Below are positions 2,963 through 9,935 of a DNA stretch of 11,538 nt, in pieces; positions within the stretch are counted from its first letter, which is position 1, and each line of letters opens with the position of its first letter. Both the position numbers and the translations under genes were made by a program. This stretch comes from a virus (Duplodnaviria; Heunggongvirae; Uroviricota; Caudoviricetes). Location: the IMG/VR virus record IMGVR_UViG_2648501841_000005; one strand, 5' to 3'. The notes beneath the pieces are model-generated. The model ran no database searches. It was not told where the DNA came from and saw only the letters and a program-made list of their open reading frames with translations.

Positions 2963-3171
2963 GCACAGAAGAAGCCAGAGAAATGATACAGCGGTACCGT
3001 GAAGCGGAAATGGCCGTACTGGAGGGAAAGTCTGTCACCTTCAACGGGCAGCAACTGACGCTGGAAAGCCTTTCTCAGATCCGCGCCGGACGTCAGGAGT
3101 GGGAACGCAGGCTTGCCGCGATGGTGAGCCGCAGGCGGGGAAAACCGGGATTTAAACTGGCGAGGTTTTAA
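2959..3171 (+). CDS. W: Head-tail joining / head completion protein (lambda gpW family)
   Basis: Small ORF between terminase and portal. C-terminal RRRGKPGF matches lambda W RRRGPAGF, and STEEAREMIQ aligns with lambda W MTRQEELAAA (recalled). AGGAGG at 2947..2952 sits 6 nt before GTG 2959, which overlaps the terminase stop (GTGA). An in-frame ATG at 2935 (78 aa) is the longer alternative but lacks an RBS. Confidence 0.8.
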   Translation: MSTEEAREMIQRYREAEMAVLEGKSVTFNGQQLTLESLSQIRAGRQEWERRLAAMVSRRRGKPGFKLARF

Positions 3172-4673
3172 TGGCAATTATTGATGATGTGATCGGCGTG
3201 TTTTCCCCCGGGTGGAAAGCAGCCAGACTGCGTTCAAGGGCGTTAATCATGGCCTATGAGGCGGTGAAACCGACCCGGACACATAAAGCCCGGCGGGAAA
3301 ATCGCTCTGCTGATCAGCTCAGTAAATACGGTGCGGTTTCCCTGCGGGAGCAGGCCCGTTTTCTGGATATCAATCATGACCTGGTGATTGGTGTGTTTGA
3401 CAAGCTGGAAGAGCGGGTGATTGGTGCCAGGGGAATTATTGTGGAGCCTCAGCCATTACGAAAAAACGGGGAAATGGCGGCTGAGCTGGCTGCGGATATC
3501 CGCCGTTTGTGGGCTGAATGGTCCGTGAGTCCGGATGTGACAGGGCAGTATACCCGTCCTGTGCTTGAACGTTTACTGCTGCGGACCTGGCTGCGGGATG
3601 GTGAAGTGTTTGCGCAGATGGTCAGTGGTGCGGGAAACGGTCTGGAACGGACGGCGGGAGTGCCATTCTGGCTTGAGGCGATGGAGCCGGATTTTGTTCC
3701 CATGCGCACTGATGAATCCGCCGGACTGAATCAGGGGGTTTTTCTTGATGAGTGGGGAAGACCGAAAAAATATCTGGTTTATAAAAATTATCCGGTCAGC
3801 GGCCGGCAGAGTGATACGAAAGAAATCGCTGCCGGAAAAATGATCCACCTGAAGTTCACTCGTCGTCTGCATCAGACGCGAGGCTCATCCATGTTATCGG
3901 GGGTGCTGATGCGGATCAGTGCCCTTAAGGAGTATGAGGATGCGGAACTGACAGCGGCGCGTATTGCTGCGGCGCTGGGACTGTATATCCGTAAAGGTGA
4001 CGGACAGGACTATGAAGATCCGGGGAGCAAAGAGACCGAGCGGGAAGTCCATATCACCCCGGGTATTATTTATGACGATTTGCGCAAGGGCGAGGATATC
4101 GGCATGGTCAAATCTGACCGTCCCAATCCCAACCTTGAAACTTTCCGCAACGGCCAGTTGCGTGCAGTGGCAGCAGGCAGTCGTCTGAGTTTTTCCAGTG
4201 CGGCGCGTAACTATAACGGCACCTACAGCGCCCAGCGGCAGGAGTTGGTCGAGTCCACGGATGGTTACCTGATCCTGCAGGACTGTTTTATTGGCGCGGT
4301 AACCCGCCCGGTGTACCGGACATGGCTGAATATGGTGGTTGCGGCAGGTCTGCTGAAAATTCCGGCGGATGTGGAGATGAAAACGCTATATAACGCGACG
4401 TATTCCGGTCCGGTGATGCCGTGGATCGACCCGGTTAAGGAAGCTGAAGCCTGGAGAATTCAGATCCGGGGTGGTGCAGCGACAGAATCTGACTGGGTGC
4501 GTGCTGGTGGGCGCAATCCGGATGAGGTCAAACGTCGCCGCAAGGCTGAAATTGATGAAAACAGCAGACTGGGGCTGGTCTTTGATACTGACCCCGTCAA
4601 CGACAAAGGAGGCAACAGTGCCGGAACTGAACGACAGTATCAGCGCGACACCGAAAGCCAGCATGAAGAATAA
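3171..4673 (+). CDS. Portal protein (lambda B-position portal)
   Basis: 500-aa ORF in the portal position between W and the prohead protease; size is typical of lambda-family portals (lambda gpB is 533 aa). Its ATG overlaps the W stop (TAATG). Family assignment rests on synteny and size; I did not verify the alignment residue by residue. Confidence 0.85.
   Translation: MAIIDDVIGVFSPGWKAARLRSRALIMAYEAVKPTRTHKARRENRSADQLSKYGAVSLREQARFLDINHDLVIGVFDKLEERVIGARGIIVEPQPLRKNGEMAAELAADIRRLWAEWSVSPDVTGQYTRPVLERLLLRTWLRDGEVFAQMVSGAGNGLERTAGVPFWLEAMEPDFVPMRTDESAGLNQGVFLDEWGRPKKYLVYKNYPVSGRQSDTKEIAAGKMIHLKFTRRLHQTRGSSMLSGVLMRISALKEYEDAELTAARIAAALGLYIRKGDGQDYEDPGSKETEREVHITPGIIYDDLRKGEDIGMVKSDRPNPNLETFRNGQLRAVAAGSRLSFSSAARNYNGTYSAQRQELVESTDGYLILQDCFIGAVTRPVYRTWLNMVVAAGLLKIPADVEMKTLYNATYSGPVMPWIDPVKEAEAWRIQIRGGAATESDWVRAGGRNPDEVKRRRKAEIDENSRLGLVFDTDPVNDKGGNSAGTERQYQRDTESQHEE
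4503..4510 (+). other. Chi octamer 5'-GCTGGTGG-3' near the 3' end of the portal gene
   Basis: Exact octamer on the + strand, same orientation as the copy at 1147..1154. Confidence 0.5.
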
Positions 4674-6642
4674 ATCCTGGTTCAGGATGCAGGCTGGGGG
4701 GCCGGGTGACGCGGATATTTATATTTATGACGAGATTGGTTTCTGGGGAGTTACCGCGAAGCAGTTTGTCAGCGAACTGAATGCACTGGGTGATATCACC
4801 CACATTAATCTCCATATCAATTCACCGGGTGGCGATGTCTTTGAAGGCATCGCCATTTTTAATGCCCTGAAAAATCAGGGGGCGACCATTACCGTGTATG
4901 TGGATGGCGTTGCCGCCTCGATGGCATCTGTGATTGCGATGGCCGGTGATACGGTCATTATGCCGGAAAATGCCTTCATGATGATCCATAAGCCATGGGG
5001 ATTCAGTGGCGGGGATGCTGAGGATATGCGCAGTTATGCCGATTTGCTGGATAAAGTCGAATCGGTACTGTTGCCAGCCTATGCGCAGAAAACCGGAAAA
5101 ACCACCGATGAAATTGCCGCCATGCTGGCGGATGAAACCTGGATGTCCGGTGCCGAATGTCTGGCACACGGATTTGCTGACCAGGTGACACCCGCTGTTG
5201 AGGCAATGGCATGTATTCAGTCAAAACGTACAGAGGAATTTAAAAAGATGCCGGAATCCATCCGAAACATGATTACTCCGCCACGCAACAGTGCCCCGCG
5301 TGATACCACAGTGACAATCCCTGCACCGGCGGTAACAGAACCATCACCGGTACCGGCAGTGTCTGATGAGGCGACCATTCGCGCCCGCGTTATGGCAGAA
5401 CAGAAAGCCCACATGTCAGGCATTAACGATCTGTTTGCCATGTTCGGTGGTCGCTATCAGACGCTTCAGGCACAGTGCGTGGCTGATCCTGACTGTTCGC
5501 TGGAAATGGCCCGTGAACGACTGCTGAATGAAATGGGCAAGGAGTCCTCGCCGACCAACAAAAATACACCGGCCCATATTTATGCCGGAAACGGCAATTT
5601 TGTGGGGGACGGGATCCGCCAGGCGATGCTGGCCCGTGCCGGATTTGAAAATGCCGAGAAGGATAACGCCTATAACGGGATGACCCTGCGTGAATGGGCT
5701 CGCATGTCACTGACGGAGCGCGGTATTGGGGTGGCCAGTTATAACCCCATGCAGATGGTCGGGCTGGCGCTGACGCACAGCACCTCTGATTTTGGCAATA
5801 TTCTGCTGGATGTGTCGAACAAGGGGCTGATCCAGGGCTGGGAGGAATCAGAAGAAACCTTCCAGAAGTGGACCCGTAAGGGACGCCTGTCAGACTTCAA
5901 AACAGCGTATCGCGTGGGGATGGGCGGTTTTGGTTCTCTGCGCCAGGTTCGTGAGGGGGCGGAGTATAAATACATCACCACCTCAGATCGCAAGGAGACC
6001 ATTGCACTGGCCACTTACGGGGAGATTTTCTCCATCACCCGCCAGGCCATTATCAATGATGATCTGAATATGCTGGTGGACGTGCCGATGAAGATGGGGC
6101 GTGCGGCGAAGGCAACGATTGGTGACCTGGTCTACAAGGTGCTGACGGATAACCCGAAACTGTCCGACGGTAAGGCGCTGTTCCATGCCGATCACAAAAA
6201 TATTGCCACCGGGGGGATCTCCGTTTCCGGACTGGATGCGGCCCGTCAGATGATGCGCCTGCAGAAAGAAGGCGATCGTGCCCTGAATATCCGTCCGGCC
6301 TTTATGCTGGTACCGGTGGCACTGGAGACGGTGGCGAACCAGACCATCAAATCGGCCAGTGTGAAAGGGGCGGATGCAAACGCCGGTGTCATTAACCCTA
6401 TCCAGAACTTTGCTGAGGTGATTGCAGAAGCGCGTCTTGATGCGGCAGACCCGAAAACCTGGTATCTGGCGGCGGCACAGGGCACTGACACCATTGAAGT
6501 GGCCTGGCTGGATGGTGTGGACACGCCATACATTGATCAGCAGGAAGGTTTCACCACTGACGGCATTGCCACAAAAATCCGTATTGATGCCGGAGTGGCA
6601 CCACTTGACTGGCGCGGGCTGGTGCGTTCGTCGGTGGCCTGA
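4618..6642 (+). CDS. Prohead protease (ClpP/S49-like) - scaffold-like linker - major capsid protein fusion polyprotein
   Basis: Single long ORF. The N-terminal domain carries ClpP-type motifs: INSPGGDV, catalytic-Ser context GVAASMAS (Ser codon 4918..4920) and His context MMIHKPWG (His codon 4987..4989). The middle is Pro-rich and coiled-coil-like (about 5180..5580). The C-terminal roughly 350 aa is major-capsid-like by size and position. The track ORF begins at GTG 4471, but AAGGAGG (4606..4612) 5 nt before in-frame GTG 4618 is the best start; ATG 4663 is an alternative. The ORF overlaps the portal gene's 3' end. Confidence 0.85.
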   Translation: MPELNDSISATPKASMKNKSWFRMQAGGPGDADIYIYDEIGFWGVTAKQFVSELNALGDITHINLHINSPGGDVFEGIAIFNALKNQGATITVYVDGVAASMASVIAMAGDTVIMPENAFMMIHKPWGFSGGDAEDMRSYADLLDKVESVLLPAYAQKTGKTTDEIAAMLADETWMSGAECLAHGFADQVTPAVEAMACIQSKRTEEFKKMPESIRNMITPPRNSAPRDTTVTIPAPAVTEPSPVPAVSDEATIRARVMAEQKAHMSGINDLFAMFGGRYQTLQAQCVADPDCSLEMARERLLNEMGKESSPTNKNTPAHIYAGNGNFVGDGIRQAMLARAGFENAEKDNAYNGMTLREWARMSLTERGIGVASYNPMQMVGLALTHSTSDFGNILLDVSNKGLIQGWEESEETFQKWTRKGRLSDFKTAYRVGMGGFGSLRQVREGAEYKYITTSDRKETIALATYGEIFSITRQAIINDDLNMLVDVPMKMGRAAKATIGDLVYKVLTDNPKLSDGKALFHADHKNIATGGISVSGLDAARQMMRLQKEGDRALNIRPAFMLVPVALETVANQTIKSASVKGADANAGVINPIQNFAEVIAEARLDAADPKTWYLAAAQGTDTIEVAWLDGVDTPYIDQQEGFTTDGIATKIRIDAGVAPLDWRGLVRSSVA

Positions 6643-6664
6643 TAACCGCGTTATCACAATCACT

Positions 6665-6683
6665 GCCCGAAAGGGCTTTTTTT
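6665..6683 (+). terminator. Possible weak intrinsic terminator / attenuator hairpin after the capsid gene
   Basis: GCCC-GAAA-GGGC stem-loop followed by seven T residues, 23 nt after the capsid stop. A second 7-bp hairpin CAGCCCC-ACC-GGGGCTG (6696..6712) lies just before the RBS of the next gene. The first stem is short, so likely leaky. Confidence 0.3.
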
Positions 6684-6729
6684 ATGCCTGAAAAACAGCC
6701 CCACCGGGGCTGTCCGGAGAAACAGCATT

Positions 6730-7056
6730 ATGGCGAAAAATTTTGTACAGGACGGTACCACCATTGAACTGGTGAATGCCGGAGATCAGACCATCCTGAG
6801 CGGTGCTGCGGTGGTGGTCGGCAGTATGGTGGCCGTGGCCATTACCGATATTCCTGCCGGTGAGGCCGGTGACGGTTTTGCCGAAGGCGTGTTCCTGCTG
6901 CCCAAACAGTCTGCTGACGACATTCAGTCCGGCGCGGTGGTTTATCTGAAGGACGGGGTTGTGCAGCTGGCTGCAGACGGTGCGGTGGCAGCGGGGGTAG
7001 CCTGGGAAAATGCCCCTGCAAACAGCGCCACTGTGGCGGTAAAAATCAATGTCTGA
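6730..7056 (+). CDS. Small head protein, putative capsid decoration/cement protein (DUF2190-like, lambda D-position analogue)
   Basis: 108-aa Gly/Ala/Val-rich ORF immediately after the capsid gene. GGAGA lies about 10 nt upstream of the ATG. Family identity is recalled, not searched. Confidence 0.65.
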   Translation: MAKNFVQDGTTIELVNAGDQTILSGAAVVVGSMVAVAITDIPAGEAGDGFAEGVFLLPKQSADDIQSGAVVYLKDGVVQLAADGAVAAGVAWENAPANSATVAVKINV

Positions 7057-7330
7057 TCTGTTTACGCGAATGTGTTGCCGGATGGACGTGGCGACCGTTC
7101 GGGTGATGGGCAAACAGGCGGAGATTAACGGCGTCGTGTACGACGTGATGCCGGAGGAAGAGTCCGCGGAGATGGGGGCGCTTTCGGGCAGCCAGTTGTC
7201 ACTGGTGGTGTTTTCAGCCCGGTACCGTCCGGCCCGTCATGATGTTGTTGTGTTTGCGGGGCGCACACTGACGGTGACCCGTTATGACACGTACAACGGT
7301 AAACCCCGGATTTTTGTCGAACAGGAATGA
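7049..7330 (+). CDS. Head-tail connector / head closure protein (lambda FII-position; Gifsy-2-type small joining protein)
   Basis: 93-aa ORF between the decoration-like gene and Z, overlapping the upstream stop by 8 nt. Its C-terminal region (RTLTVTRYDTYNG) loosely resembles lambda FII (GDTLTIGEENFWVDRV). The start codon is uncertain. Confidence 0.55.
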   Translation: MSDLFTRMCCRMDVATVRVMGKQAEINGVVYDVMPEEESAEMGALSGSQLSLVVFSARYRPARHDVVVFAGRTLTVTRYDTYNGKPRIFVEQE

Positions 7331-8374: not shown

Positions 8375-9164
8375 ATGGCAACACCAAATCCCCTTGAGCC
8401 GGTAAAAGGTGCCGGTCCCACTCTGTGGGTTTACAACGGCAAGGGTGATGCTTATGCAAACCCGTTGTCAGACGATGACTGGCAGCGANNNNNNNNNNNN
8501 NNNNNNNNNNNNNNNNNNNNNNNNNNNNNNNNNNNNNNNNNNNNNNNNNNNNNNNNNNNNNNNNNNNNNNNNNNNNNNNNNNNNNNNNNNNNNNNNNNNN
8601 NNNNNNNNNNNNNNNNNNNNNNNNNNNNNNNNNNNGTCTGCAGGAGATACCAGTTTTACGCTGGCCTGGAAACCGGGAGAAGAAGGTCAGAAAGGGCTTA
8701 TAGGCTGGTTTGAAAGCGGGGATGTGCGGGCCTATAAAATCCGTTTCCCAAATGGCACGGTGGATGTGTTCCGTGGCTGGGTCAGCAGTATCGGTAAGGC
8801 CGTGACGGCGAAAGAAGTGATCACCCGCACGGTGAAAGTCACTAACGTGGGCAAACCTTCCGTGGCGGAAGAACGCAGCGAAATTACGCCGGCCACTGCA
8901 ATTAAGGTGACACCGACATCCGGTACGGTGGCAAAAGGGAAAACAACCACCCTGACGGTTTCTTTTGAGCCGGAAAGTGCAACAGACAAGACGTTCAGAG
9001 CGGTTTCCGCCGATCCGTCGAAAGCCACCATTAGTGTGAAAGATATGACAATTACGGTAAACGGCGTGGCGACAGGTAAGGTGCAGATCCCTGTGGTGAG
9101 CGGAAATGGTCAGTTCGCCGCAGTGGCTGAAGTCACCGTTACTGAAGCGGGCGCTGCAGGGTAA
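8375..9164 (+). CDS. V: Major tail protein (lambda gpV family) with C-terminal Ig-like domain; interrupted by a 147-nt N gap
   Basis: The N-terminal part ([19 protein letters not shown]...PLSDDDWQR) and the post-gap part ([11 protein letters not shown]...[41 protein letters not shown]...) both match recalled lambda gpV closely. The two parts are in different frames across the N run, so the true gap length is not 147. Confidence 0.85.
8489..8635. other. Assembly/masking gap (147 N) inside the major tail gene
   Basis: Continuous run of n read directly from the sequence; flanked on both sides by gpV-homologous coding sequence in different frames. Confidence 0.95.
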
Positions 9165-9177
9165 ACGGAGGTCATAC

Positions 9178-9600
9178 ATGTTTCTGAAAACAGAACAATT
9201 TGAATATAACGGTGTGTCCGTCACGCTTTCCGAATTGTCTGCGCTGCAGCGGTTTGATTATATGAAGTTTGTTTCAGACGCAGAACAACAGAAGACAACG
9301 AAGCATGATGTCGTGCGCATTAACCAGCGATATCTGGAAACGGCATCCCTGCTTGTGGCGATGTCGCTATGGCATTCCCATTCCCTCAAAGGCACTCTGG
9401 CCTCTCCGGAGACAGAGATGCAGCAGATCCGCCGTGAAGTGATGCTGGGATGGCCTGCTGATGCACTGAATCAGGCAACGAACCGGGTGCTTTATCTTTC
9501 AGGTATGCTGGATAACCGGCACGATGCCGATCCTGAACCAACCGGGAAAACAGAAGCGACTGAGCCGGTAACATCAAAAAAGCATTCGAAGGCGAGCTGA
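9178..9600 (+). CDS. G: Tail assembly chaperone (lambda gpG family)
   Basis: MFLKTEQFEYNGVSVTLSELSALQR matches the recalled lambda gpG start MFLKTESFEHNGVTVTLSELSALQR. GGAGG at 9166..9170 sits 7 nt before ATG 9178. The track ORF extends upstream to 9106, overlapping V; I reject that extension. Confidence 0.9.
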   Translation: MFLKTEQFEYNGVSVTLSELSALQRFDYMKFVSDAEQQKTTKHDVVRINQRYLETASLLVAMSLWHSHSLKGTLASPETEMQQIRREVMLGWPADALNQATNRVLYLSGMLDNRHDADPEPTGKTEATEPVTSKKHSKAS

Positions 9601-9935
9601 ACTTTGTCCTGAAACTGGCGCGTGAGATGGGGAGAGCCGACTGGCGCGCCATGCTTGCCGGGATGACATCCACCGAATATGCCGACTGGCACCGTTTTTA
9701 CCGCACGCATTATTTTCAGGATACCCAGCTGGATATGCATTTTTCCGGGCTGACGTACGCTGTACTCAGCCTGTTTTTTTGCGATCCGGATATGCATCCG
9801 GCGGATTTCAGCCTGTTCGCTCCGGAGGCAGAGGAAGGACAGGCGGAGACGCCGGACGAAAATGATGTACTGATGCAGAAGGCGGCGGGCCTCGCCGGTG
9901 GAGTCCGTTTCGGGGAGGAGGGAAGGAGGTTGTGA
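9178..9935 (+). CDS. T: Tail assembly chaperone G-T fusion (lambda gpGT family), made by -1 frameshifting at 9576..9582
   Basis: The downstream T ORF (track 9627..9935) is in the -1 frame relative to G and that frame is open from the slippery site onward. The conserved G/G-T arrangement sits directly upstream of the tape measure gene, as in lambda. Confidence 0.75.
9576..9582 (+). promoter_or_regulatory. Programmed -1 ribosomal frameshift slippery heptamer A_AAA_AAG (G to G-T)
   Basis: The heptamer sits in the gpG zero frame (TCA AAA AAG) 6 codons before the G stop. The -1 frame is open from here through the T ORF to the stop at 9933..9935, with no stop between 9576 and 9627. Confidence 0.7.

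Follow-up and report, generated by a model that had tools for sequence, protein, structure and literature searches.

A Gifsy-2-type protease-scaffold-capsid fusion gene in an Escherichia coli O157:H7 prophage and its conserved putative internal start site

Introduction

The capsid gene of phage Gifsy-2 has been described as a protease-coat fusion (PMC12315714), and the same three-in-one arrangement, with protease, scaffold and capsid protein encoded together, has been described for the Pseudomonas MD8-like phages (PMC8508860). Gifsy-2 builds a T=7 shell whose threefold axes carry a trimeric cement protein (PMC8814770, PMC8538268), and in HK97, lambda and Mu a maturation protease breaks down the scaffold parts inside the procapsid (PMC8508860). 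The subject of the present analysis is an open reading frame (ORF) of this kind, located at 4618..6642 in a stretch of 11,538 nucleotides of Caudoviricetes DNA, IMG/VR record IMGVR_UViG_2648501841_000005; this whole stretch is referred to below as the window. The Gifsy-2 counterpart of the ORF is reportedly what Effantin et al. 2010 called the 'tripartite capsid gene', in which an N-terminal ClpP-like protease is said to be followed by about 200 residues of a central, possibly scaffolding domain and by a C-terminal capsid protein.

The protease-scaffold-capsid fusion is thus already known, and it is curated in NCBIfam, very common and not new. It is shared by over a third of complete E. coli genomes and has been structurally studied in Gifsy-2, and names such as 'Clp protease ClpP' obscure the role of the gene as a phage capsid gene. 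Some novelty attaches only to the conserved internal start signal at the junction between protease and scaffold. An initial annotation of the window had proposed a single-ORF fusion of a ClpP-like prohead protease, a scaffold-like linker and a major capsid protein; it missed the known and curated architecture, the nature of the Pro-rich part as a spacer and the conserved internal start site. The identity of the gene and the nested start, taken together as one statement, are considered reasonably probable.

Results

Identity and distribution of the fusion gene

The full-length tripartite capsid gene (4618..6642; like every feature given below, it lies on the + strand) comprises 674 codons and a stop codon, with no internal stop, and encodes a protein of 73.0 kDa. 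Residues are numbered from GTG 4618 throughout, and the domain map was drawn from two alignments, one of close homologues (A1) and one of a broader set that includes Gifsy-2 and a Pseudomonas phage (A2), together with 69 loci from a one-genome-per-species collection and from phage records. The single intact ORF of the initial annotation is therefore present, at a length there given as 675 to 723 aa. The stop-to-stop frame does extend over 4471..6642, corresponding to 723 aa counted from its first GTG, but the extra 49 codons lie inside the portal gene, and coding is unsupported there.

Compared with NCBIfam NF045540, named 'ClpP-like prohead protease/major capsid protein fusion protein', the protein scores 1002 bits, about twice the cut-off of 475, and its residues 32-672 align to model positions 2-651 of 652. 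PHROG 133 is matched over the whole length with 1151 bits. In the matching O157:H7 genomes, the RefSeq annotation of the ORF carries the NF045540 name, and the synteny agrees. That one gene combines protease, scaffold and capsid protein, as had been proposed, is in keeping both with the NF045540 match and with the like description of the MD8-like phages (PMC8508860). It is at the very least nearly certain that the ORF is a Gifsy-2-type tripartite capsid gene, with a ClpP-like protease, a scaffold-like domain and a capsid protein in one frame.

The gene is widespread. The same uninterrupted ORF is found in O157:H7 chromosomes at 100% identity, and the fusion is carried by 2016 of the 5426 complete E. 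coli genomes (coverage of at least 80%), as well as by many Shiga toxin (Stx)-converting and other lambdoid phages, including ASU11, 1720a-02, CP-1639, mEp460, cdtI and mEp213. The 69 diverse loci, from Enterobacterales, Pseudomonas, Shewanella and Pasteurellaceae, contain uninterrupted fusions at 50-100% protein identity. A stop or frameshift that would split the ORF is seen neither in the O157:H7 chromosomes nor in these loci.

Some damaged copies were also encountered. In VT1-Sakai (AP000400.1, 3921-5230), the gene is split by IS629, with the two parts annotated as 'scaffolding protein' and 'hypothetical protein', and the Stx1 prophage VT1-Sakai therefore has no intact capsid gene. Three near-identical copies in IMG/VR have broken ORFs, and the lengths over which they match (2021 or 2023 nt) are not divisible by three; these are either decayed prophage copies or the products of sequencing errors.

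A conserved internal start site

The protease and scaffold parts meet in a conserved junction at residues 196-225 (...AMACIQSKRxEEFxKMPxSIRNMITPPRNS), and the peptide MPxSIRNMITPPRNS, encoded at 5248..5292, marks the protease/scaffold boundary in alignments A1 and A2. The first residue of this peptide is Met211. Its codon, ATG 5248, is preceded at a distance of 10 nt by GAGGA (5233..5237), an internal sequence resembling a Shine-Dalgarno (SD) element. A putative nested product from Met211 (5248..6642) would contain the scaffold-like domain and the capsid protein, in 464 aa and 50.4 kDa. On the pattern of conservation described below, a second in-frame initiation at ATG 5248 probably yields such a 50-kDa protease-free scaffold-capsid protein.

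ATG 5248 is invariant in all 69 sequences, which present 51 distinct 33-nt contexts, and the AGGA core is found at the same distance from the ATG in all 69 homologues. The codon bearing the SD is GAG in 59 sequences, AAG in six and CAG in three (68/69); the encoded residue thus varies among Glu, Lys and Gln, and the NAA synonym is never used. NAG is kept even in the Pasteurellaceae, where it represents only 16-31% of such codons. In the single exception among the 69, the sequence TTA GGA GAC restores AGGAG. The site is also unique within the gene: among 14 conserved Met codons, only Met211 has an SD core upstream (in 100% of sequences, vs 0-10% for the others).

Two further properties of the nucleotide sequence distinguish this position. 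Across 52 sequences with less than 90% mutual nucleotide identity, synonymous divergence in the seven codons at 5224-5244 is 0.309, vs a gene mean of 0.559 (z -4.0), which is the gene minimum, and in the synonymous-site scan the codons just before Met211 are the least variable of the gene outside the portal overlap. In each of 29 diverse sequences, the mRNA between -30 and +20 relative to ATG 5248 is also less structured than the average of the gene (mean z +1.74). The junction signal may descend from the start of an ancestral separate gene, and its conservation in the nucleotide sequence speaks for continued use. A literature search for internal starts in such fusions returned no relevant result, with the primary Gifsy-2 paper lying outside its reach.

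A more far-reaching proposal is that the 'single-ORF' capsid gene is in fact a nested pair, in which the protease-free protein would be the main shell subunit and the full-length protein a minority protease carrier, and that this holds in at least two fusion families, over a host range from Enterobacterales to Pasteurellaceae, Pseudomonas and Ralstonia; the chances of this proposal as a whole are judged to be evenly balanced.

The sister fusion family

The second family considered is NF045541, the 'prohead protease/major capsid protein fusion protein' of Ralstonia, Vibrio, Shewanella and Rhodobacter phages. Its members have a scaffold and Phage_capsid_4 module in common with the ORF in the window, at 27-34% identity over that module, and their N-terminal domain is unrelated to that of the ORF, with no ClpP match. 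The junction is the boundary at which different proteases have joined a common scaffold-capsid module. An SD-preceded ATG lies within one codon of the aligned junction in 69% of 74 NF045541 sequences, vs a mean of 0.6% and a peak of 8% for control columns, which were likewise scored within one codon on either side and for ATG only; a window of 15 codons on either side is too loose (control maximum 0.81). One example is the Ralstonia phage YO135_4, in which AGAGGAAAACACC precedes an in-frame ATG at the junction (about 2505-2524).

The phage relatives of the capsid domain are nearly all annotated as protease-capsid fusions, with ClpP-like, peptidase U35 or unnamed proteases, and on these annotations fusion seems to be the rule for the Phage_capsid_4 family. 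The relatives include Rhodobacter phages and the archaeal virus Methanoculleus virus Blf4.

Domain organization

Profile searches of the protein matched Pfam CLP_protease, Phage_capsid_4 and Mu-like_gpT. The ClpP-related head-maturation protease domain is encoded at 4711..5190 (residues about 32-191, from the NF045542, CLP_protease and ClpP alignments), and the homologue alignments show a conserved ClpP-fold protease block at about residues 20-195. Pfam CLP_protease is matched over residues 46-191 (E 1.7e-36), and the score for NF045542 ('head maturation protease, ClpP-related') is 224 bits vs a cut-off of 120. The ClpP-type Ser/His signature reported earlier was found as described, with GVAASMAS at residues 97-104, MMIHKPWG at residues 121-128 and Ser101 at 4918-4920. 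The best PDB matches of this domain are solved ClpP chains, in which Ser101 aligns with ClpP Ser97 and His124 (4987-4989) with ClpP His122, while Glu173 (5134-5136) occupies the position of ClpP Asp171; the preceding Asp172 is variable.

Ser101, His124 and Glu173 are invariant in 69 of 69 sequences. In place of the Ser-His-Asp triad of bona fide ClpP, the domain therefore has Ser and His with Glu at the Asp171 position, which points to a possible Ser-His-Glu triad among ClpP-like prohead proteases of this group, with a putative catalytic role for Glu173. The ClpP equivalog models are scored well below their cut-offs, with 61.6 vs 308.6 for TIGR00493, and all PRK ClpP models likewise remain far below theirs.

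The linker sequence singled out by the initial annotation (PESIRNMITPPRNSAPRDTT...) starts at residue 212 and had been described as Pro-rich, coiled-coil-prone and scaffold-like. A Pro-rich stretch is present, but it is a hypervariable spacer that is neither coiled-coil-like nor the scaffold proper. This Pro/Thr/Gln-rich spacer (5293..5364, residues about 226-249) varies in length, with indels in A2, and its column conservation is 0.36-0.5 vs about 0.85 elsewhere. The conserved helical part comes after it: a scaffold-like domain at 5365..5535 (residues about 250-306), recognizable in the alignments by DExxIRAxVxAEQKxR...LL. An AlphaFold2 model of the full-length protein, built with 21 homologues at 75-94% identity, has a mean predicted local distance difference test (pLDDT) score of 35 and is unusable as a whole; it scores best in the helices at residues 251-274, 281-289 and 295-305 of this domain. 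When A2 was compared with lambda gpC in hhalign, residues 40-335 were collinear with gpC 105-433, including the Nu3 part, in a weak match (E 1.7e-4, probability 49%). The helical domain thus appears to bear a weak resemblance to the Nu3 portion at the C-terminus of lambda gpC.

A variable junction with indels follows at 5536..5574 (residues about 307-319, from A2 and the conservation profile), and maturation cleavage would probably occur here, at about residues 307-320, with the N-terminus of the mature capsid protein predicted to fall between residues 307 and 325. The remainder, from residue 320 to the end (5575..6639), is highly conserved and corresponds to a major capsid protein domain of the Mu gpT / Phage_capsid_4 type, with a Pfam core at 5761-6630. 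If cleaved near residue 319, this domain would have about 356 aa and a mass of 38.7 kDa. The capsid-sized C-terminal domain of the initial annotation is thus confirmed by Phage_capsid_4 (PF25209; residues 382-671, E 9.4e-56), and Mu-like_gpT (PF10124) is matched with E 6.8e-10. A profile of the C-terminal 464 residues of 36 homologues (A3) matches the solved Mu GpT-type capsid chains 8rkx/8rkc (4.7e-10) and 9jod (6e-8); the capsid domain is therefore placed in the Mu gpT branch of HK97-fold proteins.

Start codon of the full-length protein

An SD sequence, AAGGAGG (4606..4612), can be read 5 nt before GTG 4618. Its anti-SD duplex energy is -11.6 kcal/mol, vs -0.1 kcal/mol before ATG 4663, the start codon used by RefSeq. 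Homologues begin with MPx at the position aligned with GTG 4618, where Gifsy-2 has ATG. ATG 4663 is disfavoured, having no SD and no aligned Met in Gifsy-2. Given the strong SD, the MPx starts of the homologues and the lack of a Gifsy-2 Met at 4663, GTG 4618 is the better supported start, and the RefSeq-annotated protein is probably 15 codons too short. From GTG 4618, the gene overlaps the last 56 nt of the portal gene, whose stop codon is at 4671-4673.

Alternative interpretations

The main alternative to an internal start is that only the full-length 73-kDa protein is made, so that each capsid subunit brings its own protease and scaffold. On this view, GAGGA-N10-ATG either goes back to the start of a scaffold-capsid gene that once stood alone, and has been retained because the protein needs the residues encoded there (EEF..MP), or it serves to pause elongation between domains. 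Every database record has just one coding sequence annotated, and the descriptions of one gene for all three functions do not mention a second product (PMC8508860, PMC12315714). Several features of the locus also weigh against a nested start. The internal SD is of moderate strength (duplex energy -6 kcal/mol), and its 10-nt spacing is at the long end of the functional range. The E-E/D-F residues encoded by the motif are fairly conserved, as are the M-P residues at the protein level, and nucleotide conservation is thus partly protein-driven. The two fusion families have a scaffold-capsid module in common, and their junction signals may have been inherited rather than acquired independently. A homology between the Nu3 start and Met211 was rejected, since hhalign puts the annotated Nu3 start inside the protease fold, at about residue 150, and the lambda parallel is therefore an analogy only. 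With a mean pLDDT of 35, statements about folds come from profiles, and domain boundaries from alignments. Protein-level constraint is nevertheless hard to reconcile with the amino acid changes at the SD-bearing codon (E, K, Q and once G) beneath a constant AGGA core, or with the avoidance of the commoner NAA synonyms even in AT-rich hosts. In NF045541, the encoded residues vary widely (EEN, KET, KGN, QGA, KDS and others), yet the SD and ATG persist, and the combination of the lowest synonymous divergence with an unusually open mRNA fits an initiation site and not a protein motif. Production of the full-length protein alone is thus possible but somewhat doubtful, and initiation at ATG 5248 is the preferred interpretation.

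The remaining alternatives concern the identity of the gene itself. Many databases call it 'Clp protease ClpP' or 'ATP-dependent Clp protease proteolytic subunit', and ClpP chains top the PDB matches, which might suggest that the N-terminal domain is a cellular-type ClpP subunit working with host ClpX/ClpA and not a self-contained prohead protease. This is very improbable, as the cellular ClpP cut-offs are missed by far whereas that of the phage head-maturation model NF045542 is exceeded, Glu replaces ClpP Asp171, and the gene is fused to a capsid protein and flanked by portal and decoration genes. That a frameshift, a lost stop or a misassembly has joined separate protease and capsid genes, making the long ORF an artefact or the product of decay, is scarcely credible. 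Damaged copies do exist, in VT1-Sakai (IS629) and in the three IMG/VR sequences with lengths not divisible by three, but the fusion is preserved without interruption in hosts ranging from E. coli to Pseudomonas, Shewanella and Pasteurellaceae, is carried by the 2016 E. coli genomes mentioned above, has its own curated hidden Markov model and serves as the functional capsid gene of the viable phage Gifsy-2. The head module in the window also has no separate capsid gene: among the ten ORFs scanned, no second capsid-family match was found. A Gifsy-2-type tripartite capsid gene remains the reading that is adopted here.

Genomic context

The 11.5-kb window is 99.9% identical to E. coli O157:H7 chromosomes and is the late-gene region of a lambdoid prophage of this organism. 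The 5' part contains genes for a DUF1441 small-terminase-like protein, a lambda gpA-type large terminase, a small protein at the W position and a lambda-family portal, and the 3' part continues from the capsid ORF with a Phage_cement_2 protein, a Gifsy-2-family head-tail protein, homologues of Z, U, V, G and T and the start of the tape measure gene. The capsid ORF thus sits in the late operon, with the portal gene upstream and the decoration gene downstream. The portal gene (3171..4673; Pfam Phage_portal_2, E 1.6e-80) is directly upstream, and its 3' end overlaps the start of the capsid gene; the head decoration (cement) protein gene (6730..7056; Phage_cement_2, E 6.6e-19; PHROG 122, head decoration) is directly downstream. 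The mosaic head module inferred in the initial annotation is evident in this arrangement: the terminase, portal, Z, U, V, G and T genes are of lambda families, and the head module has a ClpP-like protease, a Mu gpT-like capsid domain and a Phage_cement_2 decoration gene.

An Rfam scan of the window found no RNA family, and a scan for promoters and terminators in 4400-6800 gave nothing above the shuffled expectation. Two small GC-rich hairpins are present in the gap between the capsid and decoration genes, one at 6665-6683 (GCCC-GAAA-GGGC, then T7) and the other at 6697-6713 (CAGCCCC-ACC-GGGGCTG). Both were missed by the consensus scan because the first stem has fewer than five pairs and the second has no T run. 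The mEp460 record has a rho-independent terminator annotated at the equivalent position.

Several observations concern the genes further downstream. The gene at 7049-7330 is at the position of lambda FII (head-tail joining) and has only a weak Phage_attach match (E 0.004); it carries the misleading names 'ATP-binding sugar transporter from pro-phage' (Pfam PF13856) and 'DNA breaking-rejoining protein' (RefSeq). A run of 147 N at 8489-8635, representing a masked stretch or an assembly gap, lies inside the tail-tube gene V (8375-9164), and a reference strain has 110 nt in its place. The two ORFs at 8375..8713 and 8409..9164 are an artefact of this N mask, and there is no frameshifted gene.

The tail assembly chaperone pair G/GT contains the slippery heptamer A AAA AAG at 9576-9582, in the G frame. 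The G ORF (9106-9600) ends shortly after the heptamer with a TGA stop codon at 9598-9600, and the T frame is open over 9564-9935. The G part matches TIGR01674 and the T part TIGR01715; RefSeq labels the T part an incomplete pseudogene and not a frameshift product. The corresponding heptamer of lambda G/GT is G GGA AAG.

Discussion

Proposed assembly pathway

The domain map is compatible with the assembly pathway established for Gifsy-2, with its T=7 shell and its release of a mature capsid protein, which is transferred here by orthology. Translation from GTG 4618 would give a 73-kDa polypeptide with a ClpP-fold serine protease (Ser101, His124 and Glu173), a variable spacer, a helical scaffold-like domain of about 60 residues and, as its C-terminal part, a capsid domain of the Mu gpT-type HK97 fold. 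Initiation at ATG 5248 would supply most of the shell subunits as the 50-kDa product, and the long form would bring the protease into the procapsid. The capsid domains would assemble into a T=7 procapsid enclosing the scaffold and protease parts. By transfer from HK97, lambda and Mu, the protease would remove everything N-terminal of the capsid domain, probably by cleavage at residues 307-320, leaving about 39 kDa. The shell would finally expand, after which the downstream cement protein would decorate it.

Use of the internal start would account for the control of protease-to-capsid stoichiometry in such phages. It would also show that fusing all three functions into one frame does not abolish the nested protease/scaffold logic known from lambda and Mu. 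Mu I/Z and herpesvirus UL26/UL26.5 offer parallels for nested protease and scaffold products.

Comparison with known systems

The closest relative among the described systems is the Gifsy-2 protein (STM1034.3n), which is 60% identical from end to end, including the junction motif and Met211. Gifsy-2 has the same order of ClpP-like protease, middle domain and capsid protein, and the gene has the same neighbours: the terminase and portal genes before it and the tail genes are of lambda type, and a cement protein gene comes after it. The gene in the window differs in its host, E. coli O157:H7, in a shorter linker and in a GTG instead of an ATG start codon, and is otherwise an orthologue. The protein in the window is a typical member of NF045540, a family that includes gp5 of the Pseudomonas MD8-like phages, and is 58-59% identical to Pseudomonas phage proteins of this type.

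The lambda genes C, Nu3 and E occupy the same position in the head module, and the protease is linked to the scaffold in both systems. Nu3 is annotated as nested in C, in frame, and a nested start is likewise proposed for the gene in the window. Unlike that of lambda, the protease in the window is ClpP-like and not S49, and the capsid protein is Mu gpT-like and not gpE-like, and is fused instead of being encoded by a separate gene. The order of capsid and decoration genes is also reversed, the decoration gene coming second in the window and first in lambda.

The proposed short form is similar to HK97 gp5 in that it would consist of an N-terminal scaffold part, here of 108 aa, and a capsid domain; the HK97 delta domain has 102 residues (PMC8508860). 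In HK97, likewise, the scaffold part is removed by the prohead protease (gp4). The protease in the window differs from gp4 in belonging to another family and in being encoded in the same frame as the capsid protein, and a separate cement protein takes the place of the covalent chainmail (PMC8538268).

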